Source: Candidatus Parcubacteria bacterium (lineage in GTDB: Bacteria; Patescibacteriota; Minisyncoccia; Phycocordibacterales; UBA6065). From it: a stretch of DNA of 35,434 nt. The stretch spans positions 1 through 35,434 of the forward strand of contig JAIFWQ010000001.1 in NCBI GenBank assembly GCA_019661795.1. The letters run 5' to 3'. Below the pieces are notes generated by a model. It saw only the letters and a list, made by a program, of their open reading frames with translations, had not been told where the DNA came from and did no database searches. Positions 167 to 35,434 of the stretch are shown one piece after another; position 1 is the first letter of the stretch; the number at the start of each line of letters is the position of its first letter. A program made the position numbers and the translations under genes.

Positions 167-3100
167 ATGGCAGATCTTAAGAATCAAAAGCCCGCTTCCG
201 CGCCGGCTCCCAAGACCAAGCTCGTCGAGATAGAGGAGAAGATCCTCGCTTTTTGGGACAAAGAAGAGATATTCCAGAAATCGCTCGATAAGAAAGGCAA
301 AGAATTCGTCTTCTATGACGGCCCGCCGTTCGCGAACGGTCTGCCTCATTACGGACACATGCTCGCGAGCTTCATAAAAGACGCGATCCCGCGCTACAAG
401 ACGATGCAGGGATTCCATGTCCCGCGGCGCTGGGGCTGGGACTGCCATGGTCTGCCGGTCGAGACGCTCGTTGAAAAGGAGCTCGGGCTCAAGGCCAAAA
501 GCGACATCGTCGAATACGGCCTCGGAAAGTTCAACGACGTCGCCCGGGAAAGCGTCCTCCGCTATACGGACGAATGGCGCAAGCAGATACCGCGCATCGG
601 CCGCTGGGTGGATATGGACAACGACTATCGCACCATGGACGCGGCATACACCCAATCGGTATGGTGGGCGTTCAAGACGCTGTGGGACAAAGGCCTCGTC
701 TACGAAGGCTTTAAGTCCATGCAGATATGTCCGCGCTGCGGGACGACGCTCTCGAATTTCGAGGTCAATTTGGGATACAAAGACATAACCGACATTTCCG
801 TCTATGCGAAATTCAGGAGCAAGGACGATTCGAACGTCTATTTCATCGCCTGGACGACGACGCCGTGGACTCTGCCGGGGAATGTCGCTCTCGCTGTCGG
901 CGCGGATATCGACTACGCGCGAGTCGCTTTCGAAGGAGCGACGTACGTCGTCGCCCGGGACCGCGTCGCCGACGTATTCGCCGGCAAAGAGCATTCCCTC
1001 GAATCGGTGGTGAAGGGCGAAGACCTCGTCGGGATCGCGTACGAGCCGGTTTTTCCTTACTATGCCGACGATTCGCTTAAAAATTATGAGAACGGCTTCA
1101 AAATATACGCCGCCGATTTCGTGACGATCGAAGACGGAACGGGCATCGTCCACATCGCACCGGCGTTCGGCGATGACGACATGAAGCTTGGCGAACGGGA
1201 GAGCCTGCCTTTCATCCAGCATGTCGGCATGGACGGAAAATTCAAGAAAGAGGTCGCCGATTTCGCCGGCATGGACGTAAAGCCGAAAGACGATCATCAG
1301 AAGGCCGATGTCGAGATCATAAAATGGCTCGCGCGGCAGGGGCTTCTCTTCGACAAGAAGAAGATCATCCATCCATACCCTCATTGCTGGAGGTGCGAGA
1401 CGCCGCTCCTTAATTACGCTGCTTCGTCATGGTTCGTCCGCGTCACGGCGTTCAAAGACAAGCTCGCCGCAGCCAATAAAAAAATCTCATGGGTTCCCGG
1501 CGACATCCGCGACGGCAGATTCGGCAAATGGCTCGAAGGCGCGCGGGATTGGGCGATATCGCGCTCCCGATTCTGGGGCGCGCCTATTCCCGTATGGAAG
1601 GGAGTCGATTCAGGCAAGCTCTATCCGGTCGGTTCGATCGGCGACCTCGCCAAGCTCATAAAGAAGTCAGGCAATTCGTACCTCCTCATGAGGCACGGCG
1701 AATCGGAGGCCAACGCCAAAGGCGTTTCGAACGCGAACATAGACCTGTCGAACGGGTATCCTCTCACCGAAAAGGGCAGGCTCGAAGCCGCCGCCCAGGC
1801 AAAAAAGATCGCGGCGGAAGGCATCGACCTCATCATCGCCTCGGATTTCCTCCGGACGAAAGAGACCGCCCGCATCATCGCAGACGCCTGCGGCATTCCC
1901 GAGAACAAGATCATATACGACGTCCGCCTGCGCGAATACAACGTCGGCCCGGAAAGGGAAGGCAAGCTCTGGGCCGAGACCGACAAGCACGTCCGGACGC
2001 ACGGATTCTATCCCGGCATGGAAACTCCGGCGGAACTGAAGAAGCGCGTCTTCAAGGCGCTTTTCGATATCGACCGCGCGCATCAGGGAAAGAAGATACT
2101 CATCGTGAGCCACGGATCGCCTCTCAATACGATCATCCATGGCGTAGACGAAACGCCGAGCCAGGACAAAGTCCTCCATGACCAGAGGCGCCATTTCCAG
2201 ACGACCGGCGAATTGCGTCCGTTCGATTTCGTCCGCTTGCCCCATAACGAGGATTTCGACCTCGATCTTCATAGGCCATTCATCGATGACGTGGAATGCG
2301 TCGCTCCCGACGGCGAAAAGCTCGTCCGCGCGCCGGAGGTTTTCGACTGCTGGTTCGAATCCGGTTCAATGCCTTATGGCGAAGCCTGCTACAAAGGCAA
2401 AGCTCTGTCGCATTTCGATCCGAAGGGCAGACTCGGCGGCCTTCTCAAAAAGAAAGTCGGCTTTCCGGCGGATTTCATCGCCGAAGGTCTCGACCAGACC
2501 CGCGGTTGGTTCTATTCGATGATGGTTCTCGGCGTCGGAGTATTCGGCCAGAGCCCGTACAAGAACGTTGTCGTAAATGGTCTTATTTTGGACGAGAAGG
2601 GCGAGCACAAGCTCTCGAAGAGCCTCCAGAATTACCCCGATCCGATGAAGCTCGTCGGCACGTACGGCGCCGATTCTCTGCGCTATTATCTCCTTTCATC
2701 GCCGGTCGTCGCGGCGCAGGATCTCTGCTTTTCGGAAAAAGCCGTCGACGAAGTGTCGAAGAAGCTCATCCAGAGGCTCGATAACGTGCTCGCGTTCTAC
2801 GAAATGTATGCGGCGGATGCGAAGGGCAGTGAAATGAACAGCCGCGACGGCTTGAAAGCATCCGACAACGTCCTCGACCGATGGATCATCGAGCGCCTCC
2901 GCGAGACCCGCGACGAAACGACCAGATGGCTCGACCTCTATCAGCTTGACAAGGCCGCCCGGCCGATCATGTCGTTCGTCGACGATCTGTCGACATGGTA
3001 CCTGCGCCGTTCGCGCGACAGGTTCAAATCCGATGATCGGGCCGATAAAGAGGCGGCTCTTCGTACGACGAGATCCGTTTTCCGCCAGTTCGCCAAAATA

Positions 3101-3697
3101 TCCGCTCCATTCATGCCTTTCTATGCCGAATATCTTTTCGGCAGGGTGAAGCTCGCGTCCGATCCGGAGAGCGTGCATCTGTGCGACTGGCCGAAAGCCG
3201 AAAAATCCGACGCCAAGGTCGTGAAGGACATGGAAGAGACGCGCAGGCTCGTCACGCTCGCTCTCCAGGAGCGTTCGAAGGCGAATATAAAGGTGCGCCA
3301 GCCTTTGGCCAAGCTCTCCCTCAAGACGCCGTCGCTCGGATCCGAATTCATCGATCTCATACGAGAAGAAGTGAATGTGAAATCGGTCGAGTCGGACGAA
3401 AGCATCGCGGCCGAGACGCTCCTCGATACGAACGTCACCGAAAGCCTGCGCAAAGAAGGCGTCGTCCGCGACCTGATCCGCGCCATACAAGATCTGCGCA
3501 AAACGGAGGGGCTGTCGGTGGGGGACAAAGTCGCTCTTCTTCTCGATTCCGACGAGAAAGGCAAAGAGCTCGTCCATGCGTTCGCGCACGATGTCCGCCG
3601 GATCACGCTCGTCACAGGCATCGAATACGCCCATCTGCCTCATGCGTCGGAGCTCGCCATAGAAGAGCACCGATTCAGGATAGGATTGAAGAGATAA
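167..3697 (+). CDS. ileS: Isoleucyl-tRNA synthetase (class Ia) carrying an inserted histidine-phosphatase domain
   Basis: 1176-aa ORF. HIGH-type motif 'GLPHYGH', KMSKS-type motif 'KLSKS', editing-domain motif 'WTTTPWTLPGN', and 'DCWFESGSMPY'. An extra ~195-aa segment (about 1661-2262) carries RHGE and SHG phosphatase signatures (see findings). Confidence 0.96.
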   Translation: MADLKNQKPASAPAPKTKLVEIEEKILAFWDKEEIFQKSLDKKGKEFVFYDGPPFANGLPHYGHMLASFIKDAIPRYKTMQGFHVPRRWGWDCHGLPVETLVEKELGLKAKSDIVEYGLGKFNDVARESVLRYTDEWRKQIPRIGRWVDMDNDYRTMDAAYTQSVWWAFKTLWDKGLVYEGFKSMQICPRCGTTLSNFEVNLGYKDITDISVYAKFRSKDDSNVYFIAWTTTPWTLPGNVALAVGADIDYARVAFEGATYVVARDRVADVFAGKEHSLESVVKGEDLVGIAYEPVFPYYADDSLKNYENGFKIYAADFVTIEDGTGIVHIAPAFGDDDMKLGERESLPFIQHVGMDGKFKKEVADFAGMDVKPKDDHQKADVEIIKWLARQGLLFDKKKIIHPYPHCWRCETPLLNYAASSWFVRVTAFKDKLAAANKKISWVPGDIRDGRFGKWLEGARDWAISRSRFWGAPIPVWKGVDSGKLYPVGSIGDLAKLIKKSGNSYLLMRHGESEANAKGVSNANIDLSNGYPLTEKGRLEAAAQAKKIAAEGIDLIIASDFLRTKETARIIADACGIPENKIIYDVRLREYNVGPEREGKLWAETDKHVRTHGFYPGMETPAELKKRVFKALFDIDRAHQGKKILIVSHGSPLNTIIHGVDETPSQDKVLHDQRRHFQTTGELRPFDFVRLPHNEDFDLDLHRPFIDDVECVAPDGEKLVRAPEVFDCWFESGSMPYGEACYKGKALSHFDPKGRLGGLLKKKVGFPADFIAEGLDQTRGWFYSMMVLGVGVFGQSPYKNVVVNGLILDEKGEHKLSKSLQNYPDPMKLVGTYGADSLRYYLLSSPVVAAQDLCFSEKAVDEVSKKLIQRLDNVLAFYEMYAADAKGSEMNSRDGLKASDNVLDRWIIERLRETRDETTRWLDLYQLDKAARPIMSFVDDLSTWYLRRSRDRFKSDDRADKEAALRTTRSVFRQFAKISAPFMPFYAEYLFGRVKLASDPESVHLCDWPKAEKSDAKVVKDMEETRRLVTLALQERSKANIKVRQPLAKLSLKTPSLGSEFIDLIREEVNVKSVESDESIAAETLLDTNVTESLRKEGVVRDLIRAIQDLRKTEGLSVGDKVALLLDSDEKGKELVHAFAHDVRRITLVTGIEYAHLPHASELAIEEHRFRIGLKR

Positions 3698-3700
3698 CCC

Positions 3701-4204
3701 ATGTCGTACGCCGTCTACAATACCCGCGGCTTCATATTGGGGAGCGGCCCTTCAGGCGAAGCGTCGAAGCTCTATTCCATATACACGGAGGATTTCGGCC
3801 TGGTCCGCGCCAAAGCCCAGAGCGTGCGCCTGCTCCAATCGAAGCTCCGCTACAATCTCGAAGACTATTCGTTCTCCGCGGTCTCTCTCGTGAAAGGCAG
3901 GGAAGTCTGGAGGCTCACCGGCGCGGAGAATCTTTCGCAAAGATCGAACGACCTCCTCATCCGGGCGAGAACGCTCAATCTGATCCGCAGGCTCGTCCAG
4001 GGCGAAGAGAAGAACGAAGATCTGTTCGACGCGCTCCTTCTTCTTGAATCAGATGCTGCAGGCGCGACTGCTCCGTCGGAAGCTCTCATTCTGTCCCATG
4101 CGCTCTCGGCCCTCGGCTATCTCGATCTCGCGGCGCTCGAAGGCAAGAGCGAGAGGGAAAGGATACTCGCGATCAATAAGGCTCTCAAAGAGACCCAGCT
4201 CTAA
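3701..4204 (+). CDS. recO: Short RecO-like DNA repair protein (N-terminal OB-fold type, no obvious zinc-finger C-terminus)
   Basis: 167 aa. The N-terminus 'GFILGSGPSGEASKLYSIYTEDFGLVRAKAQSVRLLQSKLRYNLEDYSF' follows the usual RecO OB-fold pattern (GxVL..xxxGExdxxxxxxTxxxGxxxxxAkgxr). It starts 3 nt after the ileS stop. Confidence 0.5.
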   Translation: MSYAVYNTRGFILGSGPSGEASKLYSIYTEDFGLVRAKAQSVRLLQSKLRYNLEDYSFSAVSLVKGREVWRLTGAENLSQRSNDLLIRARTLNLIRRLVQGEEKNEDLFDALLLLESDAAGATAPSEALILSHALSALGYLDLAALEGKSERERILAINKALKETQL

Positions 4205-4227
4205 AGCGGCGATGCGAAATCGCCGCG

Positions 4228-4236
4228 TGTTATAAT
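4228..4236 (+). promoter_or_regulatory. Extended -10 promoter element (TGTTATAAT) 6 nt upstream of the ATG; candidate leaderless transcript
   Basis: TATAAT at 4231-4236 preceded by TGn. The ATG of the next CDS is at 4243. No SD-like sequence lies between them. Confidence 0.4.
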
Positions 4237-4242
4237 CTTTTC

Positions 4243-6180
4243 ATGTTCGAATCTGACAAGAGAAGCCCTTTGGAACGCCTCAAAAAGGGCCTGTATTCGA
4301 GAAATGCCAAAGAATCCGAAGCGCCGCGTCACGATATCCATATCGGGCGCTCGAATGTGTCCGAATCATGGGACGCCCCGAACGGGACCGAAGGCCCTGC
4401 GGACGACAAGCCGATCGAAGTGACCCCTGAAAGGCGCTATGCCTACAAGATCGCCTTCATCTGCTCGGCGCTCTTTCTCGTGGCCGCATTCGCCATAGCC
4501 GCCTACACCTTTTTCGGCGGCGGCAACTACATATCCGTCGAGAACGTCGACATCCAGGTCGAAGGCCCGTCATCCGTCGCGGGAGGCGAGCCTCTTTCGA
4601 TCGACGTATCGGTCGCGAACAAGAATCAGACCGACATCGACCTCGTCGACCTCGTCGTCGAATTCCCTCAAGGCACGAAGGATCCATCGAATCCGGCCAA
4701 AGACCTGTCCCGCATCAGGGTGTCTCTCGGCGACATCGGATCGCAATCGGTCGTCCAGAAGCCGTTCTCGGCCCTCATGTTCGGGCGCGAAGGCGAGGTG
4801 CGCGACATAAAGCTCACGGCCGAATACCGCACGGCCGATTCGAACGCCATTTTCTTCAAAGAGAAGATCTATCACGTGACGATATCCTCGTCGCCCGTCC
4901 TCGTTCTCGTCGACGCTCTCGACAAGGTGCTCGGCGGCGAGGCGTTCGACGTGACGATCACGGTGTCCTCCAACACGACCGCGCCGGTGAAGGACGTGCT
5001 CCTGTCGCTCGACTATCCGTTCGGCTTTTCGGTCATATCATCCGATCCCCAGGCGACGTACGGCGATAACGTCTGGCGCATCGGCGACCTCGCTCCCGGA
5101 TCCAAGCGTATGATCAAGCTCCGCGCCACGGCGACCGGCCAGGACGGGGAAGACAGGACGGTGCACGCGAGCGTCGGCATACAGAGCGCCGGCAACGAGC
5201 GCGAGATAGCGACGACGATCATAACCCAGGATCACACGTTCACTATCGAAAAACCGTTCCTCGGGCTCGACCTCGCTCTCGACGGACAGCGCGGCGATCT
5301 CGCGGCGGACGCGGGAAGGACCGTGCATGCGGACGTCATATGGACGAACAACAGCGGCACCCAGATCACGAACGCCCGCATAACGGCCAAGCTCGGCGGG
5401 AGCGCGCTCGACAAGAATTCCGTATCCGTCGACAACGGCGGCTTCTATGATTCGCTCACCAATACGATCACGTGGGAAGCCGGACGGACGGCGGGGCTCG
5501 ACACCATCGCTCCCGGCGACGACGGCAGGGTCGGTTTCTCGGTCGCGTCGACGCAGTCGGCTCCGAATCAGTCGCGTTCCGCCATCGATCCGGTCATCAC
5601 CATCGCCGTCTCCGTTTCGGGCAGCCGCACGGACGAAGCGGGCACGCCTCAATCTATAAATACCGCCGTCAGCCGGTCCATAAAGCTCCTTTCCAATCTC
5701 GGCATATCGTCCCGAGCCGTCTATTCGCAGGGTCCGTTCAAAAATAGCGGGCCGGTCCCTCCGAAAGTCGATCAGGCGACGACCTACACCATCGTCTGGA
5801 CAGTGACGAACACTTCGAATACCATCACAGGAGCGAAGGTGACGGCGACTCTGCCTCCGTATGTGGCTTGGACGGGGAACATAAGCCCTACGGGAGCCGA
5901 TATCAGCTATGACCAAAAGGGCGGCACGATCGTCTGGAACATCGGCGAAGTGCCGCGGAACGCGGATATAGGGTCGGGCGCCAAGCAGGTGGCCTTCCAG
6001 ATATCGCTCAAGCCTTCCGCGAACCAGGCCGGAACGGTTCCCGAGCTCGTCGGCCAGGCGTCGGTCTCGGGTACGGACGTGTTCACCGGCGCAGCGGCCA
6101 AAAATGCGGCCGGCAGCCTTTCAACGAGGATATCGACGGATCTCTTATACAAAGCGGGAGACGAAATCGTCCAAAAATAA
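4243..6180 (+). CDS. Type II membrane-anchored envelope protein with four CARDB/DUF11-like beta-sandwich modules; function unknown
   Basis: 645 aa. Charged N-terminus, then one TM helix 'IAFICSALFLVAAFAIAAYTFF'. Four similar modules follow, for example 'GEPLSIDVSVANKNQTDIDL', 'GEAFDVTITVSSNTTAPVKD', 'GRTVHADVIWTNNSGTQITN', 'TTYTIVWTVTNTSNTITGAK'. Confidence 0.8.
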   Translation: MFESDKRSPLERLKKGLYSRNAKESEAPRHDIHIGRSNVSESWDAPNGTEGPADDKPIEVTPERRYAYKIAFICSALFLVAAFAIAAYTFFGGGNYISVENVDIQVEGPSSVAGGEPLSIDVSVANKNQTDIDLVDLVVEFPQGTKDPSNPAKDLSRIRVSLGDIGSQSVVQKPFSALMFGREGEVRDIKLTAEYRTADSNAIFFKEKIYHVTISSSPVLVLVDALDKVLGGEAFDVTITVSSNTTAPVKDVLLSLDYPFGFSVISSDPQATYGDNVWRIGDLAPGSKRMIKLRATATGQDGEDRTVHASVGIQSAGNEREIATTIITQDHTFTIEKPFLGLDLALDGQRGDLAADAGRTVHADVIWTNNSGTQITNARITAKLGGSALDKNSVSVDNGGFYDSLTNTITWEAGRTAGLDTIAPGDDGRVGFSVASTQSAPNQSRSAIDPVITIAVSVSGSRTDEAGTPQSINTAVSRSIKLLSNLGISSRAVYSQGPFKNSGPVPPKVDQATTYTIVWTVTNTSNTITGAKVTATLPPYVAWTGNISPTGADISYDQKGGTIVWNIGEVPRNADIGSGAKQVAFQISLKPSANQAGTVPELVGQASVSGTDVFTGAAAKNAAGSLSTRISTDLLYKAGDEIVQK

Positions 6181-7548
6181 ATGAAGCACGAATCGAAGAA
6201 AAAAGAAGGCGAGAGCGCCGTGATGGAGAACATGATATCGCTCGCGAAGCGGCGCGGCTTCATATTCCAGGGTTCCGAGATATACGGCGGCCTCGCCGGC
6301 ACGTGGGACTACGGCCCGCTCGGCGTCGCCCTCAAAAATAACGTCAAAAACCTCTGGTGGAAGAGGTTCGTCGCCGACCGCGAAGACATGTACGGCATGG
6401 ACGCGGCCATTCTCATGAATCAGAACGCGTGGAAGGCATCGGGCCACGTCGCCGGGTTTTCCGACCCTCTCGTCGAATGCGAGAAATGCAAAAGGCGCTT
6501 CCGGGCCGACCAGCTCGACGCCGAAGCGCGCGAAAAGAGGAAATGCCCCGAATGCGGCGGCAAGCTCGGCGCCGAAAAGCAGTTCAATATGATGTTCAAG
6601 ACTCACGTCGGCGCCTCGGAAGACGCGGCGGCGGTGTCGTATCTGCGCCCCGAAACAGCGCAGGGCATGTTCGTCAATTTCAAGAACATCATCGACGCGT
6701 TCCATCCCAAGCTCCCGTTCGGCATGGCCCAGATAGGCAAGGCGTTCAGGAACGAGATCGCGCCGCGCGATTTCATATTCCGTACCCGTGAATTCGAGCA
6801 GATGGAGATCGAATATTTTGTCGATCCGAAGGATTGGAAAGATACCTTCGAACATTTCATACGGGAAGTCCGCGCGTTCACGGCCGACGTCGGCCTGCCG
6901 AAAGAGAAAGTCCACGAATACGAAGTACCGGGGGATTCGCTCGCGCATTATTCCAAGCGTACCGTCGACTTCGAATTCGACTATCCGTTCGGCAAAAAAG
7001 AGCTCTACGGCCTCGCATATCGCACCGATTTCGACCTGAAAGCCCATTCGGCTACCTCCGGCGTCGACCTTTCATACTATGACGAAGAAGCGAAAGCCCG
7101 CTTCGTGCCGCACGTTATCGAGCCGTCGTTCGGCGTCGACCGCACCGTCCTCGCCGTGCTCTCTGAAGCGTATCGCGAAGACGAGCTCGGCGGCGAGAAG
7201 CGCGTCTATCTCAAGCTCGCGCCTTCTGTCGCTCCGATCAAAGCCGCCGTATTCCCGCTCCTCAAAAATAAAGACGCGCTCACCGCGAAAGCCCGCGAGA
7301 TATATCAGGTCCTGCGCAAAGAATTCGCCAAAGGCTCGGGCGGCGTCGAATACGACGAGGTCGGATCCATAGGCAAGCGCTACCGCCGGCAGGACGAGAT
7401 CGGCACGCCGTACTGCGTCACCATCGACTTCGACACCATCGAAAAAGACGGCAGTCCCGTCACGGTGCGCGACAGGGATACGGGAACGCAGGAAGCGATA
7501 CCTCTCAAGGACCTCGTCTCGTTCCTTTCGCAGAAACTGAATCGATAA
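6181..7548 (+). CDS. glyQS: Glycyl-tRNA synthetase, dimeric class II (GlyQS type)
   Basis: 455 aa. 'RRGFIFQGSEIYGGLAGTWDYGPLG', 'YLRPETAQGMFVNF', 'FRNEIAPRDFIFRTREFEQMEIEYF' (class II motifs) and 'GKRYRRQDEIGTPYCVTID'. The start abuts the upstream stop. An alternative in-frame ATG lies at 6223. Confidence 0.95.
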   Translation: MKHESKKKEGESAVMENMISLAKRRGFIFQGSEIYGGLAGTWDYGPLGVALKNNVKNLWWKRFVADREDMYGMDAAILMNQNAWKASGHVAGFSDPLVECEKCKRRFRADQLDAEAREKRKCPECGGKLGAEKQFNMMFKTHVGASEDAAAVSYLRPETAQGMFVNFKNIIDAFHPKLPFGMAQIGKAFRNEIAPRDFIFRTREFEQMEIEYFVDPKDWKDTFEHFIREVRAFTADVGLPKEKVHEYEVPGDSLAHYSKRTVDFEFDYPFGKKELYGLAYRTDFDLKAHSATSGVDLSYYDEEAKARFVPHVIEPSFGVDRTVLAVLSEAYREDELGGEKRVYLKLAPSVAPIKAAVFPLLKNKDALTAKAREIYQVLRKEFAKGSGGVEYDEVGSIGKRYRRQDEIGTPYCVTIDFDTIEKDGSPVTVRDRDTGTQEAIPLKDLVSFLSQKLNR

Positions 7549-7553
7549 GGCTC

Positions 7554-8822
7554 ATGAATTTCAAAAAGACTATCCTTACGAACGGCGTGCGGATCGTCAC
7601 CGCGCCTTTGCCGGGCAACCCGACCGCGACCGTTCTGGTCACCGTCGGCACCGGCTCCTTCTATGAAGCGCCGGAACAGGGCGGTATTTCGCATTTTTTG
7701 GAGCACGCCTGTTTCAAGGGCACTTCCAAAAGGCCTTCCGCAAAACACATAACGACCGAGCTCGATACCATCGGCGCGATCTATAACGCCTTCACTTCGA
7801 AAGATATCACCGGATATTGGTCCAAGGCCGACGCCAAGCATTTCGGCCGCATCGCCGACATCGTCGCCGACATATTCAAGAATTCGACCTTTCCCGAAAA
7901 AGAGATCGAAAAAGAGAAAGGCGTGGTCATAGGCGAGATCGACATGTATGCGGACGATCCGCAGGAGAAGATCGGCGAAGCCTTGCTCAAGCATATGTAT
8001 AAAGGCCAGCCGGGGGAGCGCGAGGTGCTCGGAACCAAAGAGACCGTCCGCGCCATCACCCGCGACGCGCTCGTCGCATATCGAAGATCCCAATATACCG
8101 GCCCGAACGTCGTCGTCACCATCGCGGGCGGTGTGCCGGAAAAAGACATGCTCGCCTGGGCGGAGACGAATTTCGCCGATCTCGACGCTGCGCCAGCGAA
8201 TCCGGAATTCCCCACGAAAGACAGGCGGCAGGAAGGTCCCGAGACCGTTTTCATAGATAAGGATACCGATCAGGCGCATGTCGTCATGGCGTGGAGGACG
8301 TTCGACAGGCTCAACCCCGACCGCTATGCGGCGAGCGTCGTCAAAAATATCCTTCGCGGCGGCATGAGTTCGCGCCTTTTCATACGATTGCGCGATGAAA
8401 TGGGTTCCGGCTATTACGTTTCGGCCAACCATTCGCTTCATGCGAGCTTCGGCTTCTTTGCCATATCGACGGGCACGACTCACGAACGGGTTCCAGAGAT
8501 CGTATCGGCGATCATAGAGGAGACCGAAAGGCTCAAGACGGAGCCGGTGCCTCTCCATGAGCTTGAAAAGGTGAAGGAATTCATCCGCGCTCATCGTTTG
8601 ATGTCGCTCGAGACTTCGGACGACGTCGCGGAGTATTGCGCCGAACAGGAGACGCTCAAAAAGAACATCATGTCGCCCGAGGAATTGGACGCCGTATACG
8701 CGGAGATAACGGCCGAAGACGTCATGCGCGTCGCCCGGAAGATGTTCGATGGCGCGAAGCTCACCGCCGCCGCTATCGGAAAGGGGATAGATAAAGAAGC
8801 GGTCAAAAAGGCGATATCGTAG
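7554..8822 (+). CDS. M16-family (insulinase/pitrilysin-like) zinc peptidase
   Basis: 422 aa. Inverted zinc motif HxxEH in 'GISHFLEHACFKGT' near the N-terminus. Two-domain length is typical of M16. Confidence 0.88.
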   Translation: MNFKKTILTNGVRIVTAPLPGNPTATVLVTVGTGSFYEAPEQGGISHFLEHACFKGTSKRPSAKHITTELDTIGAIYNAFTSKDITGYWSKADAKHFGRIADIVADIFKNSTFPEKEIEKEKGVVIGEIDMYADDPQEKIGEALLKHMYKGQPGEREVLGTKETVRAITRDALVAYRRSQYTGPNVVVTIAGGVPEKDMLAWAETNFADLDAAPANPEFPTKDRRQEGPETVFIDKDTDQAHVVMAWRTFDRLNPDRYAASVVKNILRGGMSSRLFIRLRDEMGSGYYVSANHSLHASFGFFAISTGTTHERVPEIVSAIIEETERLKTEPVPLHELEKVKEFIRAHRLMSLETSDDVAEYCAEQETLKKNIMSPEELDAVYAEITAEDVMRVARKMFDGAKLTAAAIGKGIDKEAVKKAIS

Positions 8823-9975: not shown

Positions 9976-11415
9976 ATGTCAAAGACTTTCTACATAACGA
10001 CCACGCTGCCGTACGTGAACGCGGAGCCTCACGTCGGTTTCGCCATGGAGATCATCCGCGCCGACATCGCCGCGCGATGGAAGAAGCTCCAGGGATACGA
10101 GGTATTTTTTAATACGGGCACGGACGAACACGGGCAGAAGCTTTTCAAATCGGCGGAAGCGGCAGGGAAGCCGGTGAAGCAGTTCGTGGACGAGAGCGCG
10201 GAGAATTTCAAGAAGATCCTGCCCATCCTCGGCATCAGCGAAGACATACATTTCATCCGCACGACGGATTCTCATCATGAAAAGGCGGCCCAGGAATTCT
10301 GGAAAAGGGTGGAGAAGAACGGCTTCATATACAAAAAGAACTATAGATCGAAATACTGCGTCGGCTGCGAAGAGGTTAAGACCGAATCAGAGCTCGTGAA
10401 CGGCAGGTGCGTCATCCATCCCCAGCTCGATATCGAGGTCATCGAAGAAGAGAACTATTTCTTTAAATTCAGCGCGTTCGGAGACAGGCTCCTGAAGCTC
10501 TATGACAAGAAAGGCCATACCATCGTGCCGGATTTCCGCATGAACGAGATGAGAGAATTCATAAAGCGGGGCCTCGAGGATTTCAGCATATCCCGGCTTA
10601 AGACGAAAATGTCATGGGGCGTTCCCGTGCCGAACGATCCCGATCATGTCATGTACGTATGGTTCGACGCGCTCGTAAATTACATCTCCACCCTCGGCTG
10701 GCCGGAAGACGAAGCGACTTTCAAAAAATTCTGGGAAAAAGGCACGCCGACGCAGTATTGCGGCAAAGACAATACCCGTTTCCAGTCCGTCATGTGGCAG
10801 GCGATGCTCATGGCCGCCGAATTGCCCCCGACCCATACCGTGGTCGTGAACGGATTCATCACGGGAGACGGCGGCATAAAGATGTCCAAATCCCTGGGCA
10901 ACGTGGTCAGCCCGGTCGACGTCGTGAACGAATACGGGACCGATGCCCTGCGCTATTTCGTCTCGCGCGAGATCGGTCCGTTCGAAGATTCGTCCTTCAC
11001 CATGGAGCGATTCAAATCCGCATACAACACCAACCTCGCGAACGGCCTCGGCAATCTCGTGTCGCGGGTTATGAAGATGGCGACGACGAATCTCGAAAAG
11101 CCTGTAAAGTCCAAGGACGGCAAGTTCCCGAAAGAATATGAAAAAGCGCTCGATTCGTTCGATCTCCAGGCCGCCGCGAACGCCGTATGGAAGCGCGTGA
11201 CCGATGCGGACCAGCTCATCCAGGAAAAGGCTCCGTTCAAGCTCGTAAAGACGGACAAGAAAGCGGCGGTGAAAGTGATCGAAGAGCTCTGCGAAAGGCT
11301 CTATGAGATAGGCTCGATGCTCGCCCCGTTCATGCCGCAGACATCCGAAGCGATCAAGGCTCTCGTTCGCGAGAACAAAATGCCCGCCGCGCCGCTTTTC
11401 TTGAGGAAAGAATAA
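9976..11415 (+). CDS. metG: Methionyl-tRNA synthetase (short form, no C-terminal tRNA-binding domain)
   Basis: 479 aa. 'TTTLPYVNAEPHVGF' (HIGH region), 'KMSKSLGN', and a CxxC...C..H knuckle in 'YCVGCEEVKTESELVNGRCVIH'. Confidence 0.95.
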   Translation: MSKTFYITTTLPYVNAEPHVGFAMEIIRADIAARWKKLQGYEVFFNTGTDEHGQKLFKSAEAAGKPVKQFVDESAENFKKILPILGISEDIHFIRTTDSHHEKAAQEFWKRVEKNGFIYKKNYRSKYCVGCEEVKTESELVNGRCVIHPQLDIEVIEEENYFFKFSAFGDRLLKLYDKKGHTIVPDFRMNEMREFIKRGLEDFSISRLKTKMSWGVPVPNDPDHVMYVWFDALVNYISTLGWPEDEATFKKFWEKGTPTQYCGKDNTRFQSVMWQAMLMAAELPPTHTVVVNGFITGDGGIKMSKSLGNVVSPVDVVNEYGTDALRYFVSREIGPFEDSSFTMERFKSAYNTNLANGLGNLVSRVMKMATTNLEKPVKSKDGKFPKEYEKALDSFDLQAAANAVWKRVTDADQLIQEKAPFKLVKTDKKAAVKVIEELCERLYEIGSMLAPFMPQTSEAIKALVRENKMPAAPLFLRKE

Positions 11416-22305: not shown

Positions 22306-22340
22306 CAAAAGCCGCATCGCAAGGTGCGGCTTTTGCGTTG
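22306..22340 (+). terminator. Rho-independent terminator
   Basis: CAAAAGCCGCA-TCGCAAGG-TGCGGCTTTTG, followed by a T-rich tail. Confidence 0.7.
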
Positions 22341-22346
22341 TCTGGT

Positions 22347-22352
22347 TATAAT
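22347..22352 (+). promoter_or_regulatory. -10 hexamer TATAAT 6 nt upstream of the ATG (candidate leaderless start)
   Basis: TATAAT at 22347-22352 and ATG at 22359. This is the same geometry as at 4231/4243. Confidence 0.35.
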
Positions 22353-22358
22353 GAAGCC

Positions 22359-23345
22359 ATGAAAGAACAGCGCGGATTCATAATGAAGCTCACGCTTTTC
22401 GTCGTCGCGGCATGCGTCCTTTTCATCGTCTTCGCATCGCTCGCGCGATATATCGGCCCGGGGACGTTCAATAATCTCGGCGACCTCTCGAGCAATTCGA
22501 ACCCATCCGGCTTTTCCGCCGACAGCAAGACCAACCCCCTTCTCGATTTCCTCGACACGTCCGGCGGCTCCGCTTCGTTCGGTGCGCCGAGCGGCGTTTC
22601 GAATACCCCTGCTTCGTCCCGTTCCGCCTATGCCGGCAGGATATCGCTTTCAAGCGGCAATGCGAGCTATTCCAATCAGCCGTTCGAGGAATACGTGACC
22701 ATCAGGAATTCTGGCAAAGGCTCGGTCAGCATCACGGGCTGGACGCTCACGAACGGCAAAGGAACCCGTCCGATCGAGACGAGTCAGAACAGCTACATAT
22801 ATCCTGCTGCGGATTCGGCGACTATTGGCCAGGGCACCGAATTCCTCGATCCATCGGGCGCGTTCCAGGTGGGACCGATCGTGCTTCGTCCGGGGGACAA
22901 TGCCATCGTGACGACGGGACGCCCGTTCTCGCAATTCCCGTTCTCTATATATACGAGCTTCCGCGAAAATATATGCGAAGGCTATCTCAAAAATTACCCG
23001 TTCGATCCGCCGCTCAACCAGTCGTGCCCATATCCGGCGAACGATCCGGCCATACGGACCGTGACGGACGAATGCTACGACTATATGCAGTCGCTCAGCC
23101 GATGCGAAGATCCGGAAAAATATGACAAGACCCGCTTCGAGCTCCAGACGATGCAGTGCAGGAATTTCATGACGTCGCGGCTCAACTATCCGTCCTGCGT
23201 GGCGAGGAACGGGAATTCCGCCGGATTCTCGACCAATCAGTGGCGCGTATTTCTGGGCAAAGGCAGAGAGCTCTGGGCGAGCCAAAGGGAGACGATCACG
23301 CTCTATGATTCGAAGGGGTTGATAGTCGATCAGATAAGTTATTAA
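22359..23345 (+). CDS. Membrane-anchored lamin-tail-domain (LTD) protein with a Cys-rich C-terminal domain
   Basis: TM helix 'LTLFVVAACVLFIVFASL'. LTD-like 'EEYVTIRNSGKGSVSITGWTLTNGKG...LRPGDNAIVTTG'. Six Cys fall in the last ~90 aa. The tracked ORF opens at TTG 22338; ATG 22359 is preferred. Confidence 0.8.
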   Translation: MKEQRGFIMKLTLFVVAACVLFIVFASLARYIGPGTFNNLGDLSSNSNPSGFSADSKTNPLLDFLDTSGGSASFGAPSGVSNTPASSRSAYAGRISLSSGNASYSNQPFEEYVTIRNSGKGSVSITGWTLTNGKGTRPIETSQNSYIYPAADSATIGQGTEFLDPSGAFQVGPIVLRPGDNAIVTTGRPFSQFPFSIYTSFRENICEGYLKNYPFDPPLNQSCPYPANDPAIRTVTDECYDYMQSLSRCEDPEKYDKTRFELQTMQCRNFMTSRLNYPSCVARNGNSAGFSTNQWRVFLGKGRELWASQRETITLYDSKGLIVDQISY

Positions 23346-23390
23346 ATTTTCTTCAGCGATCCTTTATCGCTCTCTTGAGATGATGGCTTC

Positions 23391-24632
23391 ATGCGAAAAG
23401 CAGCCATCATCTTTTTATGTTTTATATCCCTTCCGTTCGCCGCAGCGGGCAGCTCTTCTTCGATCGTCATAACGGAGATCATGTATGACCTTCCAGGAAC
23501 GGATCCCGGTCGCGAATGGGTCGAGGTAGAGAATACGGGCGCCGCGGCCATAGACTTTTCAACGTGGAAGCTTTTCGAGGCGAACATCAATCACAAGATC
23601 GCAGCCGTCGGTTCGGCCGAGCTTCCCGCGGGCGGTTTCGCTGTCATCGCCGATTCGCCTGAAAAATATCGCGCCGATAATCCCGGATTCTCGGGCCTGC
23701 TTTTCGATAGCGCCTTTTCTCTCGGGAACGAAGGCGAACCGATCGTATTGCGGGATGAAAGCGGCGCGGACATAGATTCCGTATCGTACCTGCCGGCATG
23801 GGGCGCGGCAGGCGACGGCAATTCGCTTCAAAAGGCAGCTTCCGGTTCATGGGTATCAGCTGTTCCCACGCCGGGATCCGCGACGGCTGCAGCAGGGAAT
23901 CAACCGGAGCCTCAACCTGAAACTACCGGCCCGATCGCAGATCCAGACACGACTTCGACCATCGCTCCGAATCCAGTTAAAAATCCGGAGATATCCACGC
24001 ACAGCAGCCAGGAAGAGGTAAACGTCTCGTACGAAAAGCCTCAATTCGAGATCACTGCAGGCCGGCCGCGCATCGGTTTCGTCGGCGCGCCGCTCCTTTT
24101 CGAAGCGAAAGTGACCAAGTCCAAAGGCATCGAGCCGGGAAGCGGTGTTCGGAGTGTCTGGTCGATGGGGGACGGGACCGAGATATCCGGCTTGTTCGTA
24201 TCGCACGCCTATGAATATCCGGGCGATTATATCGTCGTCGCCAATACCGATTCGGGCGGAGCGCATGCTGTGGCGAAAACCAATGTGCACATCGTAACGC
24301 CAAAGCTCGGCATATCGATCTATCAAGGATCTGTCCGCATATCGAATCTCGATCGAGGAGAGATGAACGTGGGCGGTTTCATCGTCGAAGATTCGAAGCG
24401 ACGCTCTATATTGCCGCGCGATACGATCATCGCTCCTCTGTCTTCGATCATGCTCTCTTCAGCCGAGGCCGGGTTCGGCGCGCCTGAAGGATTCATACGC
24501 ATCGCCGCTCCGTCAGGGAAGATATTTTCACAAGCGCCGGCTCCCGGAGAGCCTGTCATCGCCCTTCCCGCGGATTTCGACGCGGCCGCATTCCGGAGCC
24601 GTTTTGAAGAGCTTTATAAGCCTAATCGATAG
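23391..24632 (+). CDS. Secreted LTD plus PKD-domain protein
   Basis: 413 aa. Signal peptide 'AAIIFLCFISLPFAAAG'. LTD 'IVITEIMYDLPGTDPGREWVEVENTGAAAIDFSTWKL...GNEGEPIVLRDESGADIDSVSY'. PKD-like 'WSMGDGTEISGLFVSHAYEYPGDYIVVANTD'. There is a second degenerate LTD-like segment near the C-terminus. Confidence 0.85.
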   Translation: MRKAAIIFLCFISLPFAAAGSSSSIVITEIMYDLPGTDPGREWVEVENTGAAAIDFSTWKLFEANINHKIAAVGSAELPAGGFAVIADSPEKYRADNPGFSGLLFDSAFSLGNEGEPIVLRDESGADIDSVSYLPAWGAAGDGNSLQKAASGSWVSAVPTPGSATAAAGNQPEPQPETTGPIADPDTTSTIAPNPVKNPEISTHSSQEEVNVSYEKPQFEITAGRPRIGFVGAPLLFEAKVTKSKGIEPGSGVRSVWSMGDGTEISGLFVSHAYEYPGDYIVVANTDSGGAHAVAKTNVHIVTPKLGISIYQGSVRISNLDRGEMNVGGFIVEDSKRRSILPRDTIIAPLSSIMLSSAEAGFGAPEGFIRIAAPSGKIFSQAPAPGEPVIALPADFDAAAFRSRFEELYKPNR

Positions 24633-24640
24633 ATGATATT

Positions 24641-27619
24641 ATGAACGCATGTTCGACAAGGCTTTCTTCAGGTTCGCGCTCGGATTCTCGGCGATCGTGC
24701 TGCTTTCCCTCGCCGCTCTCTACGCGACCGGATATATGGAGAAGAAGAACGTTCCGGCGCAGACTGCGGCTGTCCGCTAGTCTGGCGCTCGCCTCGGCTG
24801 GATTTTCCTTTCTTTGCGGAGCTTTTTATCCCGCATATGCAGCTACGATCATAACGGAGAGCGTCGCTACGAGCACGGTCTGGAAGAAAGACGGCAATCC
24901 TTATCTTTTTCCGAGAGGCCTGTCGATTCTCCCGGGAGTTACGCTCGCTCTCGAGCCCGGCGTTATCCTGAAGGCATTCGGTCCTTATTTTTTCGAGATA
25001 CAAGGTAAGCTCATGGCGGAAGGGACGGCGAATGACCCGATCATCTTTACTTCTCTCTATGATGAAAGTTTTGGCGGCGAGACCGACGGCTATGCCTCGG
25101 TCTTTCCGTCAAATCCCGCATCGCCGGCCATCGTGGTTTCGGAGCATGACGGTAACATCCGGCTAAGCTTGAGCAACGATTCCGGCTTTGAAGGAGTCTC
25201 CTGGGCGTCCGATTTTGACGGCGGTCAGGGAAGGAGCGTCTATGTCGGCGATCCGGCGTCTTTCACATACGATATGCCGATCCCGTATGGGTCGAACGTC
25301 GAAGCGATCATCAGCAAGGTAAATCTCGCTACCGAAGAATGTCCATGGTCCCTGTACACGCGAAATATAAGCGCGGATTTCGCATGCCTCATCGGATATA
25401 CGCAAAGGATCGAAGCCCCGCTCGCAAGATATATGTCGGCTCCGCCTGCCGCGGGCGATTGGAAGTCGCTCCTCTTTTCGGAGGGCTCTCAAGGCGTTCT
25501 TTCCCATGTCATCATGCGATATGGCGGCGAACATCATTGTTCGAGCGGCTGTACCGATTCGCCGATGGTCATCGTCCGTCATGCGAATCTGTCGGTTTCG
25601 AATTCGTCCTTCGGCGATTCGCCGTCTGCGGCCATAAGCGTCGAAGAGGGCGGGCAAGTCAGCGTCGAAAGCGCGGCGATTTCGAACGTCGCCGAGGGAT
25701 TTCATATAACGGGCGGGCGAACTACGATCCATAATTCGAGCTTCGAAAACGCGGAGAATGGCGTATACATCGTGTCTGCGTACACGGGAACCGTCGATGC
25801 GACGGGAAACTGGTGGGGAGATCCGATCGGTCCGAAGCGCGATTTCAACGAGATCGGGAGCAGGGGCGCATGGGTGTTTCCCGGCACGATCTTTTCTCCA
25901 TGGCTCTCTTCGAAGTCTGATATCGGCGCATATTCGACTTCGACGTCTACGGCGTCGTCGACAGGATCAGGAACGCCGCCCGCGCCGGAAGGCGCGGGCG
26001 CTCCGAATCCCGTGATCATCGTGCCCGGCATCCTCGGTTCCGTCGAACACAACGGAAGATGGATAATCGATCCCATATTTCACGTCTATGACAGTCTCAT
26101 CGATACGTTCCTCGCGAACGGATACATCGCGAGCTCGACTCTATTCACTTTTCCCTACGACTGGCGGAGATCGAACGCTGAAACGGCCCTGCTCCTCAAA
26201 AAGAAGATAGGCGAGATCAAAACCCAATGTGCATGCTCGAAAGTCGACATCATCGCTCATTCGATGGGAGGTCTCGTCGCTCGCGCATACGCCCAGTCTG
26301 TCGGATATCAAAACGACATCGGCTCTCTGATCTTTCTCGGCACGCCTCATCGCGGCGCTCCAGAGAGCTATCTCGCGGCGGAGGCGGGCGAATTCGGATC
26401 TTCGCCGTGGGACCGCGTCCTTAAAATGCTCATCGACCTCTATGCCGTGGGTCAGGGCCGGGCGGACGGCTTCGACTATATCAAAAATCATCCGATCGCT
26501 TCGGTGAACGAGCTTTTGCCCATATATGATTATTTGAAGGCCGCTTCGACGAGCTCTATGACGCGATATCCCGACGGCTATCCCACAAATCCTTTTTTGG
26601 AAAATTTGAATCAGAGCCTGTCCGCTCTTCTCGGCTCTTCGATCCGGATCACAAATATATTCGGCGATGTCGGCACCGGAACCGTATCGGCTTTCGATAT
26701 AGGTCCCGGAGAAAGTTCTGGCCGCTGGATCCACGGCAAACCGACGAGCACGGAGTATGGAAGGGGAGACGGCACCGTGCCGCTTTCAAGCGCGATGCTC
26801 GGTGGCACTGCCGGTTCTCGGGATATTCCTGTTGCGGCGGGACATATCGAATTGCCGAGCGCTGTCGAATCGATCGCGCTCAAAAGCCTGACCGGGAAAG
26901 AAGCATCGACGACGGCCCGCCGCTTTCAGCCAGAACATATTTTGATGGCGATCATGCATTCGCCGGCCCATATGGCCGTCATCGCCCCGACCGGAGAAAG
27001 AACGGGCCGCGATTTTGCGACAGGAGGAGAGACGCAAGGCATACCCGGCTCATTCTATTCGGGAAACGAGAGCGAGATCGAATACGTGACGGTGCCCGAT
27101 CCTGCTTTTGGCGAATATAGGATAGAGACGGAAGGCAGAGGCGATGGCGCATATGCTGTCGAGATCCAAGACATATCGGATGCGACTTCGACGAAGTCTA
27201 TCTTCGAAGGAACTACATCCACAGGTCTCCGAGAAAATCTATTCTTCGATGTCGGCTCGTCCGGCACGTCTCCTATTAAGCCGGTGATTCCAGCGCATAC
27301 GGATATTCCGGAGATTCCGCCGCAGAAAGGCGATAAAACCGAAAAAGCCGAAGAGCCTGTCCGACTGCCCGATACAACCATGCGTCCCTCGGGATCTCGC
27401 TCTGCCGCGCATATGCCACCGGCCCCGCTCGCTCGAACATATATCGAGGATGTCGCGACGGCTTTGCCCAAACCTGAAATTCTGACAGCATCTCCAGAGT
27501 CGGTGTCAAAATATGCTGATGTCGCATCCGCACATCAAGGATTCACAGGCATATTGAAATGGTTCAAGGATCTGTTCGTACTACTAATGTTAGAATTGAA
27601 AAACAGATTTTTACATTAA
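24641..27619 (+). CDS. Large exported protein: right-handed beta-helix (PbH1/NosD-like) domain plus an alpha/beta-hydrolase lipase (LCAT/PGAP1-like) domain; 5' end uncertain
   Basis: 992-aa ORF. Signal-like 'LALASAGFSFLCGAFYPAYA/AT'. Beta-helix repeats end in 'ATGNWWGDPIGP'. Lipase signatures are 'NPVIIVPGILGS', GxSxG 'AHSMGG' (Ser codon 26261-26263), 'GTPHRGAP', 'GDGTVP' (Asp 26768-26770) and 'AAGHIELP' (His 26843-26845). Confidence 0.85.
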   Translation: MNACSTRLSSGSRSDSRRSCCFPSPLSTRPDIWRRRTFRRRLRLSASLALASAGFSFLCGAFYPAYAATIITESVATSTVWKKDGNPYLFPRGLSILPGVTLALEPGVILKAFGPYFFEIQGKLMAEGTANDPIIFTSLYDESFGGETDGYASVFPSNPASPAIVVSEHDGNIRLSLSNDSGFEGVSWASDFDGGQGRSVYVGDPASFTYDMPIPYGSNVEAIISKVNLATEECPWSLYTRNISADFACLIGYTQRIEAPLARYMSAPPAAGDWKSLLFSEGSQGVLSHVIMRYGGEHHCSSGCTDSPMVIVRHANLSVSNSSFGDSPSAAISVEEGGQVSVESAAISNVAEGFHITGGRTTIHNSSFENAENGVYIVSAYTGTVDATGNWWGDPIGPKRDFNEIGSRGAWVFPGTIFSPWLSSKSDIGAYSTSTSTASSTGSGTPPAPEGAGAPNPVIIVPGILGSVEHNGRWIIDPIFHVYDSLIDTFLANGYIASSTLFTFPYDWRRSNAETALLLKKKIGEIKTQCACSKVDIIAHSMGGLVARAYAQSVGYQNDIGSLIFLGTPHRGAPESYLAAEAGEFGSSPWDRVLKMLIDLYAVGQGRADGFDYIKNHPIASVNELLPIYDYLKAASTSSMTRYPDGYPTNPFLENLNQSLSALLGSSIRITNIFGDVGTGTVSAFDIGPGESSGRWIHGKPTSTEYGRGDGTVPLSSAMLGGTAGSRDIPVAAGHIELPSAVESIALKSLTGKEASTTARRFQPEHILMAIMHSPAHMAVIAPTGERTGRDFATGGETQGIPGSFYSGNESEIEYVTVPDPAFGEYRIETEGRGDGAYAVEIQDISDATSTKSIFEGTTSTGLRENLFFDVGSSGTSPIKPVIPAHTDIPEIPPQKGDKTEKAEEPVRLPDTTMRPSGSRSAAHMPPAPLARTYIEDVATALPKPEILTASPESVSKYADVASAHQGFTGILKWFKDLFVLLMLELKNRFLH
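24649..24780 (+). CDS. 43-codon ORF encoding a TM helix, out of frame with and overlapping the 5' end of the next gene. Either a separate small membrane protein or the true, frameshifted N-terminus.
   Basis: MFDKAFFRFALGFSAIVLLSLAALYATGYMEKKNVPAQTAAVR*. This frame has the genome-typical C/G-ending codons. The overlapping long-ORF frame here is full of rare-looking aga/cga/ata/agt codons. Confidence 0.35.
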   Translation: MFDKAFFRFALGFSAIVLLSLAALYATGYMEKKNVPAQTAAVR

Positions 27620-31217: not shown

Positions 31218-31913
31218 ATGGTACTTCAAGCATGGGGAAATACGGTCACCGGCGCTTTCCAGGGAATCTGGGGCGGAACGGTCGCTCTTCTCCCTAGCCT
31301 CATAGCGGCTATCGTCATCTTCATCGTCGGCTGGATCATAGGCGCCCTCGTCGGTCGCCTCATCGCTCATCTCATCCGCGCGATCAAGCTCGACGCTGCT
31401 CTCGAGCAGGCCGGCTTCGGCGGCGTCATGAAGCGCGCAGGCTTCAGCCTCAACTCGGGCGCCTTCATCGGCGGCCTCGTCGAGTGGTTCATCATCGTAG
31501 CCTTCCTCGTCGCCTCGTTCGAGGTGCTCGGGCTCACGCAGGTCAACGTCTTCCTCCAGCAGGTAGTCCTCCTCTACTTGCCGCAGGTCATCGTGGCGGT
31601 GCTCATCCTCCTCGTATCGGTCGTCATCGCCGATACGCTCTCGAAGATCGTCGCCGGCTCGGCTCGCGCCGCAGGCGTCCACTCCGCGAACTTCTTGGGC
31701 ACCATCACGAAATGGGCCATCTGGATCTTCGCCCTCCTCGCCGCGCTCGTTCAGCTCGGCATAGCGGTGTCGTTCATCCAGACCCTCTTCACCGGAGTCG
31801 TCGTGGCTCTCTCGCTCGCGTTCGGACTTTCGTTCGGGCTCGGCGGACAGGAAGCGGCGTCCCGCTGGATACAGAGGACTCGCGAAGAGATCGCATCTCA
31901 TCATCGCGACTAG
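31218..31913 (+). CDS. Conserved TM-helix-repeat membrane protein (MscS N-terminal-like, TM_helix family)
   Basis: 231 aa. Repeated units resemble 'LLPSLIAAIVIFIVGWIIGALVGRLIAHLIRAIKLD' and 'YLPQVIVAVLILLVSVVIADTLSKIVAGSARAAGV'. Confidence 0.75.
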   Translation: MVLQAWGNTVTGAFQGIWGGTVALLPSLIAAIVIFIVGWIIGALVGRLIAHLIRAIKLDAALEQAGFGGVMKRAGFSLNSGAFIGGLVEWFIIVAFLVASFEVLGLTQVNVFLQQVVLLYLPQVIVAVLILLVSVVIADTLSKIVAGSARAAGVHSANFLGTITKWAIWIFALLAALVQLGIAVSFIQTLFTGVVVALSLAFGLSFGLGGQEAASRWIQRTREEIASHHRD

Positions 31914-32825: not shown

Positions 32826-35414
<2,589 letters not shown>

Positions 35415-35434
35415 AGATCGGAAGAGCACTCGTC
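35415..35434. other. Illumina sequencing-adapter remnant at the contig end (not biological)
   Basis: AGATCGGAAGAGCAC is identical to the common 5' part of TruSeq adapters. The 23S similarity stops just before the universally conserved GGGGATAACAGG block that should follow. Confidence 0.9.

Follow-up and report, generated by a model that had tools for sequence, protein, structure and literature searches.

Few enzymes are as conserved as the aminoacyl-tRNA synthetases, and to our knowledge the accepted inserted catalytic modules of synthetases (CP1 and INS) all serve aminoacylation fidelity. CP1 of the isoleucyl-, valyl- and leucyl-tRNA synthetases (IleRS, ValRS and LeuRS) and INS of the prolyl enzyme (ProRS) each provide a second catalytic domain within the synthetase; both act on the products of the synthetase itself and both are universal to their families. 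Synthetases are also preferred and frequent hosts for inserted domains (PMC13114784). The DNA analysed here is a 35,434-nucleotide stretch from Candidatus Parcubacteria bacterium (contig JAIFWQ010000001.1, positions 1 to 35,434; hereafter the window), in which the IleRS gene ileS (167..3697) encodes a histidine-phosphatase domain (1661..2239) nested between the two halves of the Rossmann fold; all ileS coordinates refer to the forward strand. A single polypeptide combines an entire IleRS with a full histidine-phosphatase active site. Like CP1 and INS, the nested phosphatase is a second catalytic domain within a synthetase; unlike them it is lineage-specific, occurs at differing sites and in differing copy numbers, is dispensable in ValRS and has no known link to the chemistry of aminoacylation.

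The closest described counterparts of the nested domain (residues 499–691) are free-standing branch-1 histidine phosphatases. The broad-specificity PhoE/YhfR of Geobacillus stearothermophilus (1H2E/1EBB) has the same fold, falls in the same size class of about 200 amino acids and carries the same residues, R-H-G...N...R...E...H. PhoE, PspA, CobC/TTHB049, Rv3214, TIGAR and 9MMH are all free-standing, whereas the window domain is nested and is 20–28% identical to them. A preliminary description of the locus had claimed an apparently intact histidine-phosphatase domain within ileS, and profile searches confirmed both the domain and its nested order: Pfam His_Phos_1 (PF00300) matched residues 506–664 (E=1.4e-28; 100.3 bits, the gathering score being 21.7) with stretches of tRNA-synt_1 on either side, and the insert by itself, as a 200-residue segment, gave E=3.8e-30 and 105.4 bits. 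The nearest solved relative by sequence was PhoE (1EBB/1H2E, E=7e-10). The insert was also modelled alone with AlphaFold2 (AF2), giving a predicted local distance difference test score (pLDDT) of 92.9 and a predicted template modelling score (pTM) of 0.90, while the same block reached a pLDDT of 85–97 within the full model; the prediction of an independent fold is thus a confident one. Foldseek assigned the insert-only model a probability of 1.00 to PhoE, PspA, CobC and TIGAR. The structural neighbours, which comprised TIGAR, the riboflavin-pathway HFP 9MMH, PhoE 1H2E (TMq 0.76), the phosphoserine phosphatase PspA, CobC/TTHB049 and Rv3214, are small-molecule phosphatases and not mutases.

All four branch-1 signatures were located where they had been read earlier, namely LLMRHGESEAN (residues 506–516), SDFLRTKETARII (residues 559–571), LREYNVGPEREGK (residues 588–600) and ILIVSHGSPL (residues 644–653). 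The RHG motif provides Arg509 and His510 (1691..1696), with His510 (codon 1694–1696) as the predicted phospho-accepting nucleophile; the remaining active-site positions are Asn516 (1712..1714), the second phosphate-binding arginine Arg563 (1853..1855), the predicted general acid Glu590 (1934..1936) and the second active-site histidine His649 (2111..2113). These six residues were conserved in 120/120 of the best homologues (52–77% identical, 1123–1221 amino acids long, on contigs of up to 729 kb), and G511 of the RHG motif in 119/120. A second set of 178 domains was taken from representatives far more divergent than the best 120. Here the Arg-His pair was retained in 176, the remaining two being truncated, Asn516 in 164, Arg563 in all 178 and His649 in 175, while the position of Glu590 held Glu in 169 and Asp in 8. 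The set R-H...R...E/D...H was kept in essentially all of these domains, both copies of two-domain proteins included, and the exceptions were truncated fragments. The insert is a bona fide PhoE-like branch-1 histidine phosphatase and very probably an active one; as judged from these alignments, the phosphatase is under long-term purifying selection.

The identity of the phosphatase was compared with curated NCBIfam models, and the insert fell below each of the cutoffs for dPGM, GpmB, CobC, PspA and SixA. Phosphoglycerate mutase-type identities were rejected at 73 bits against 261 for GpmB (NF002901), 72 against 225 for dPGM_arch and 29 against 81.7 for pgm_1. The alpha-ribazole phosphatase CobC (TIGR03162) was rejected at 62.4 bits against 162.9, and SixA (TIGR00249) at 27.8 bits against 74.5, with a match that covered the N-terminal 80 residues only. 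Since no equivalog cutoff was reached and identity to known phosphatases is only 20–28%, the substrate is not transferable by homology. Residues E619 and R627 were set aside as specificity determinants, because they are part of the 'GGES...R' motif common to many PhoE/GpmB/CobC-like proteins. One described family does join a CobC-like branch-1 phosphatase to a nucleic-acid enzyme, the RNase H-acid phosphatase of the Rv2228c/SCO2299 type (NF005567). The insert matches its phosphatase half at E=2e-15, but with 57 bits against a cutoff of 326, and that protein is an end-to-end fusion with RNase H rather than a domain nested in a synthetase.

The insertion site lies in CP3, a small peripheral subdomain that joins CP2 to the second Rossmann half, varies in topology among IleRSs and carries a zinc site in Thermus thermophilus (PMC7191050, PMC7955072). 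Its bounds have been given as residues 459–526 in ScIleRS (PMC7955072) and 473–534 in CaIleRS (PMC7191050). In the window IleRS the first half of CP3 (residues 476–498; 1592..1660) consists of a beta-hairpin and the helix 'IGDLAKL', with AF2 strands at 476–479 and 485–487 and the helix at 491–497. The second half (residues 692–728, PHNEDFDLDLHRPFIDD...VRAPEVFDC; 2240..2350) aligns to solved IleRS and runs into the second Rossmann half, and its residues H702, P704, D707 and R721 were invariant in 76 aligned homologues. Residues 480–691 of the window protein take the place of only 19 residues (460–478) of the solved IleRS 8C8U. The host sequence appears to resume at about residue 692, where 'PHNEDFDLDLHRP' aligns with 'SHYVDDSIELHKP' of 8C8U, so the insert proper spans roughly nucleotides 1661–2239; of the limits first proposed, 1661–2262, the start and the nested domain stand and the end appears to lie slightly earlier.

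When residues 499–698 were deleted in silico, the flanks aligned continuously to the Candida (442–549), yeast (436–552) and human IleRS. The gap at the junction was just 4–5 residues, corresponding to yeast 'TGVRN', in agreement with the earlier statement that other IleRS enzymes have a short linker at this point. Compared with 8C8U and the T. thermophilus enzyme 1ILE, the window protein therefore has about 193 extra residues that form a separate enzyme fold in CP3. Because the insert replaces a loop of this peripheral and variable subdomain, it is structurally outside the catalytic core proper, though between the Rossmann halves in sequence; the preliminary placement inside the catalytic core is accurate for the linear order and not for the structure. 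The GC content is continuous across the insert borders (0.58 against 0.55–0.60), and the junction residues N503, F688, P692, H693 and N694 are conserved among homologues. About one third of the homologues have Cys at positions 479/482, forming the CxxC of CP3, and in many the insert is flanked as CxxC...CxxC, which places it within the CP3 zinc knuckle. Many relatives thus keep the knuckle of T. thermophilus IleRS, whereas in the window protein the cysteines are replaced by KGVDSGK (residues 479–485; 1601–1621) and VAPDGEK (residues 711–717; 2297–2317), so its CP3 probably no longer binds zinc.

The host enzyme was examined for integrity. The ileS open reading frame (ORF) is a single uninterrupted frame of 1176 amino acids on the forward strand, as had been reported. 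Its best NCBIfam match was TIGR00392 (ileS) at E=1.7e-254 and 847 bits (cutoff 621.4), which the insert divides into two parts, and the type-2 models MupA and MupB ranked next. The closest solved IleRS was the Priestia megaterium IleRS2 8C8U (E=5e-210). The AF2 model of the whole protein had a mean pLDDT of 86.9 and a pTM of 0.76, and it matched the IleRS structures 8C8U, 8WND and 1ILE with E values down to 1e-82 and TMt of 0.79–0.86. The window protein has the same domain order as the mupirocin-resistant type-2 enzyme 8C8U and as 1ILE, that is Rossmann, CP core, CP1 editing, CP2, CP3, Rossmann, anticodon-binding and C-terminal, and it shares their HIGH, KMSKS and editing motifs.

The HIGH signature of the synthetic site is HYGH (residues 61–64; 347..358); across the 76 aligned homologues P60, H61 and G63 were invariant and H64 was at least 90% conserved. 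In the CP1 editing domain, which matches the isolated IleRS editing-domain structures 1WK8/1WNY, the Thr-rich motif TTTPWTLPGN (residues 230–239; 854..883) is invariant, as are the longer WTTTPWTLPGN (residues 229–239) and D338. The KMSKS signature is KLSKS (residues 815–819; 2609..2623) with K815 and K818 invariant. The anticodon-binding domain (residues 904–1048; PF08264, E=1e-28) is followed by the C-terminal DUF5915 tRNA-binding region (residues 1053–1175; PF19302, E=6e-19), the two together occupying 2876..3694. The host is a complete type-2 (eukaryote/MupA-like) IleRS with no sign of degradation, and an aminoacylation function is predicted from these motifs. NCBIfam curates one IleRS with an added enzyme domain, a GNAT domain, as NF040702 ('ileS_w_GNAT'). 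The window protein is not a member, as it scored 314 bits against a cutoff of 1999 and the match was limited to the IleRS parts.

The nested arrangement is common in Paceibacteria and is shared by hundreds of related uncultured bacteria. PF00300 was present in 120/120 of the best homologues, which were labelled Paceibacterota, Taylorbacteria, Pacebacteria or Patescibacteria. With the insert alone as query, an exhaustive HMMER search found 612 proteins at E<=1e-10 among 1.84 billion cluster representatives, and about 100 of the best 150 of these matches (50%-identity representatives) were IleRS or IleRS fragments with the domain at the same place. At least 44 GTDB species-representative genomes carry the arrangement, all with Patescibacteria-type labels that include Kaiserbacteria and Nomurabacteria; the count is a lower bound, as the scan favours relatives that match two peptide patterns. 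Among the 120 homologues the pairwise identities of insert and host co-vary (Pearson 0.91), while the insert diverges faster than its host (mean identity 43% against 63%). Conservation and co-divergence together indicate that the domain is an old and mainly vertically inherited part of the gene. The same junctions recur in hundreds of independent assemblies, including contigs of 0.6–1 Mb. An assembly chimera, the error that the preliminary description had raised for the two borders, is excluded, because over 100 independent clusters at 50% identity and the 44 species-representative genomes share the architecture.

Relatives show further arrangements. Two His_Phos domains stand in tandem within CP3 in five IleRS (P0219, P0121, P0183, P0255 and P0262). 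Three others (P0151, P0175 and P0209) carry one domain in CP3 and one in a loop at the start of the anticodon-binding domain, which flank alignment of P0151 and P0209 equates with residues 884–900 of the window protein. There the loop (2816..2866) is empty and forms the sole disordered stretch of the AF2 model, with a pLDDT below 50 at residues 886–894. The two-domain IleRS of the P0151 type was found in six assemblies, in one case on a 1.06-Mb contig. Copies inside one protein are only 26–36% identical to each other, and the catalytic residues are intact in both.

Comparable insertions were found in ValRS. In P0273 and most of the top 120 ValRS matches the CP3 zinc knuckle holds the phosphatase ('PVWYCAGCG...[His_Phos]...ECAKCG...DTLDTWF'), and these CP3-type hosts were labelled Liptonbacteria, Colwellbacteria, Kaiserbacteria and Nomurabacteria. 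A second ValRS site follows 'DTWFSSGLWTFSTLGW' (the 'TLGW' loop) in P0271 and P0220, and a third lies after 'QWF...' near CP2, where the partial protein P0123 has four tandem His_Phos copies. The same kind of insertion accordingly occurs at no fewer than five sites across IleRS and ValRS, in one to four copies. Inserts of the IleRS and ValRS types form separate groups, with 29% identity between groups and 37–39% within them, and some IleRS copies are nearest to ValRS-type domains. The distinct sites and low pairwise identities, from which independence was judged rather than from a tree, suggest that related domains from a common pool were inserted several times, independently and long ago, and not in one event. 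The ValRS P0211 also carries a nested His_Phos_1 domain.

The ValRS proteins P0273 (934 amino acids, with the cassette) and P0281 (730 amino acids, with a short Cys-free CP3) are 90–94% identical outside CP3, and their loci are syntenic (TsaD - x - valS - PrsW - HSP20). At the DNA level the valS pair, at 2725–5529 of locus L089 and 3001–5193 of locus L082, is 86–92% identical (about 88% overall) except for a cassette of about 625 nucleotides, comprising the zinc knuckle and His_Phos, that is present in one only; the two genes come from GCA_964560145.1 and the SRR12486993 assembly. This presence and absence between near-identical syntenic genes indicates that ValRS can do without the cassette, which recombination adds or removes, and the two genes offer a natural near-isogenic pair for probing the role of the domain.

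Free-standing relatives were also found. In locus L045 (region 2256–8470) a His_Phos protein of the same subfamily ('GNTYTLVRHGEAENNVLG...') is encoded at 3869–4606, 24 nucleotides downstream of argS (2256–3845), and an ileS that lacks the insert starts about 1.2 kb further downstream, at about 5840. The record is labelled Bdellovibrionales, and an ORF between the phosphatase and ileS (4834–5517) appears alternative-oxidase-like, a name given from motifs by eye only. The gene neighbourhoods of the other free-standing relatives showed no recurring context and no tRNA-related neighbours, two of them being on contigs whose lengths, 636 and 1362 bp, are insufficient to be informative. In a different organism (L086, 5001–6862) a two-domain His_Phos gene (P0140, 404 amino acids) is followed directly by another His_Phos gene with a single domain, and genes for RNase HII and dCTP deaminase lie nearby, which indicates that multi-copy arrays of this phosphatase subfamily exist outside synthetases too. 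Charge was used as a proxy for tRNA binding. The nested domains have a net charge of about -1, and neither charge nor isoelectric point differs from the free-standing relatives, so that no basic bias was apparent.

With moderate confidence we interpret the window protein as a bifunctional synthetase, in which a type-2 IleRS would bear on CP3 an independent accessory phosphomonoesterase module acting on a small substrate. A PhoE/CobC/PspA-like branch-1 phosphatase of about 193 residues would have been inserted in frame into a CP3 surface loop of 4–5 residues. A two-step phosphohistidine mechanism is established for the histidine phosphatase superfamily. In the window protein the phosphoryl group would be transferred to His510 with the aid of Arg509, Asn516, Arg563 and His649, with Glu590 as the probable general acid, and phospho-His510 would then be hydrolysed. 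The substrate class would be small phosphomonoesters, and the module would be an accessory that is not required for aminoacylation. The selective benefit may lie in tethering to, and co-expression with, an abundant and essential synthetase in a very small genome. Several points weigh against this interpretation. Residue conservation proves neither turnover nor substrate; the recurrent insertions are confined to IleRS and ValRS, a host range seen among the best 150 representatives listed, and their occurrence there at several sites hints at a more specific link to aminoacylation. The conserved junctions, and the one free-standing homologue located between argS and ileS in L045, hint at the same link.

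The main rival, which we regard as unlikely, takes up that hint and has the phosphatase coupled to aminoacylation, acting on tRNA or a nucleotide at the synthetase. It might, for example, clear damaged tRNA ends of a 3'-phosphate or 2',3'-cyclic phosphate before the tRNA is charged, or dephosphorylate AMP or some other product that synthesis and editing derive from the adenylate. Such coupling would suit the independent insertions at five or more sites, all of them in the two closest editing-type class Ia synthetases, as well as the retention of catalytic residues in all multi-copy variants. The insertions are nevertheless scattered over the enzyme, which suggests no single fixed geometry, and the ValRS cassette is present or absent between near-identical syntenic genes. 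The CP2-CP3 linker lies just upstream of the insertion, and in yeast IleRS it helps to form the tRNA CCA/reveromycin pocket (PMC7955072); the nested domains, with their slightly negative charge, are no more basic than free-standing relatives, and the closest structures all act on small metabolites. The position of the L045 homologue between argS and an insert-less ileS favours coupling, but the remaining free-standing relatives have no tRNA-related neighbourhood. Taken together, the dispensability of the cassette in near-identical ValRS and the missing basic bias lean mildly against an obligate coupling to aminoacylation. A quite improbable alternative would make the module a protein phosphatase that reverses phosphorylation of the synthetase or its partners, for instance against kinase toxins of the HipA/HipT type. 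PGAM5, Sts-1 and SixA are protein phosphatases of this superfamily, and HipA/HipT-type kinase toxins inactivate synthetases, which makes tethering in cis to a known class of toxin target plausible; the accessory pattern of presence and absence likewise resembles that of defence-type traits. The similarity to SixA is weak, however, no kinase or toxin genes lie beside ileS in the window, and the top structural matches are metabolite phosphatases. It is unlikely that the phosphatase is either mechanistically coupled to the synthetase, for example through healing of 3'-phosphate or 2',3'-cyclic phosphate tRNA ends or processing of adenylate-derived nucleotides, or undoes phosphorylation of the synthetase by kinase toxins. 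If either were true, IleRS and ValRS of Paceibacteria would be self-contained 'repair-and-charge' or 'self-protecting' enzymes, and repeated selection for coupling would account for domains having entered independently at five or more sites, with as many as four copies in one protein.

Two further explanations deny the domain a catalytic or a cellular role. It is improbable that the module is catalytically silent and either stabilises CP3 in place of the zinc knuckle or serves allosteric regulation of IleRS by a phospho-metabolite. The window IleRS lacks the CP3 zinc cysteines and yet keeps the insert, and the junction residues are conserved, which favours such a role; many relatives, on the other hand, keep knuckle and insert together. 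Pseudo-enzymes usually lose catalytic residues, whereas several hundred copies of this domain share, without variation, the nucleophilic His, both Arg, the acidic Glu and the second His in spite of the faster evolution of the domain. It is hardly credible that the feature is an artefact or a selfish element, be it a chimera of the assembly, a pseudogene or a mobile in-frame element of the intein kind that does nothing for the cell, and this explanation is effectively refuted. The cassette-like presence and absence in ValRS, the several insertion sites and the tandem copies would fit a mobile element, but the same junctions occur in hundreds of independent assemblies, the frame is open with continuous GC content, insert and host co-diverge, and the catalytic residues are under a purifying selection that a selfish element does not need. 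An intein or homing element was rejected in particular, as Pfam matches to the protein include no Hint, intein or homing-endonuclease domain, the domain co-diverges with its host and junction nucleophile motifs are lacking: the junctions read ...LIKK/SGNSY... and ...FVRL/PHNED..., with no Cys, Ser or Thr at +1 after 'HN', and 'PHN' aligns to host sequence of 8C8U.

The full-text literature searched, which omits most subscription journals, yielded no account of a histidine phosphatase within a synthetase. Since the sequences and their Pfam matches are public, the arrangement is undescribed rather than unseen. The insert is widespread in Paceibacteria, but it is neither well annotated nor described in the literature searched. 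An identical protein is deposited at NCBI under 'class I tRNA ligase family protein [Candidatus Parcubacteria bacterium]'. The window protein and its ValRS counterparts are named there either 'class I tRNA ligase family protein' or 'hypothetical protein', despite the ileS model scoring above its cutoff. With such generic labels, automated reconstructions of Candidate Phyla Radiation (CPR) genomes may list IleRS or ValRS as missing and overlook the phosphatase.

Across a major CPR class, an unrelated enzyme that appears to be active has become part of IleRS, and it has also entered ValRS repeatedly and independently; a specialist on aminoacyl-tRNA synthetases would find the architecture, its breadth and its recurrence surprising. 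Were the domain coupled to aminoacylation or tRNA integrity, it would represent a new kind of synthetase-linked activity. Were it an unrelated metabolic enzyme, it would be a case of a domain 'piggy-backing' on essential genes in minimal genomes, and a natural system for the insertion-tolerant sites of class Ia synthetases (the CP3 loop, the anticodon-domain loop, the 'TLGW' loop and CP2).

Other features of the window were recorded. Two more synthetase genes lie near ileS at 6181–7545 and 9976–11412. One encodes a class II enzyme that has an HGTP anticodon domain, the other a short methionyl-tRNA synthetase (MetRS) of 479 amino acids, and neither has a His_Phos insert. A 23S rRNA gene on the forward strand (32849–35434) is cut by the window end. 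No 16S rRNA or tRNA gene was found upstream of it, so the rRNA genes appear unlinked, and the nearest gene encodes an MscS-like channel (31218–31910). Large and probably surface-exposed or secreted proteins are encoded at 4243–6177, 22338–24629 and 24641–27616; the content of this cluster includes one protein with DUF11, two with Lamin-tail and PKD domains, and a 992-residue protein with a beta-helix and an LCAT/PGAP1-like lipase domain.

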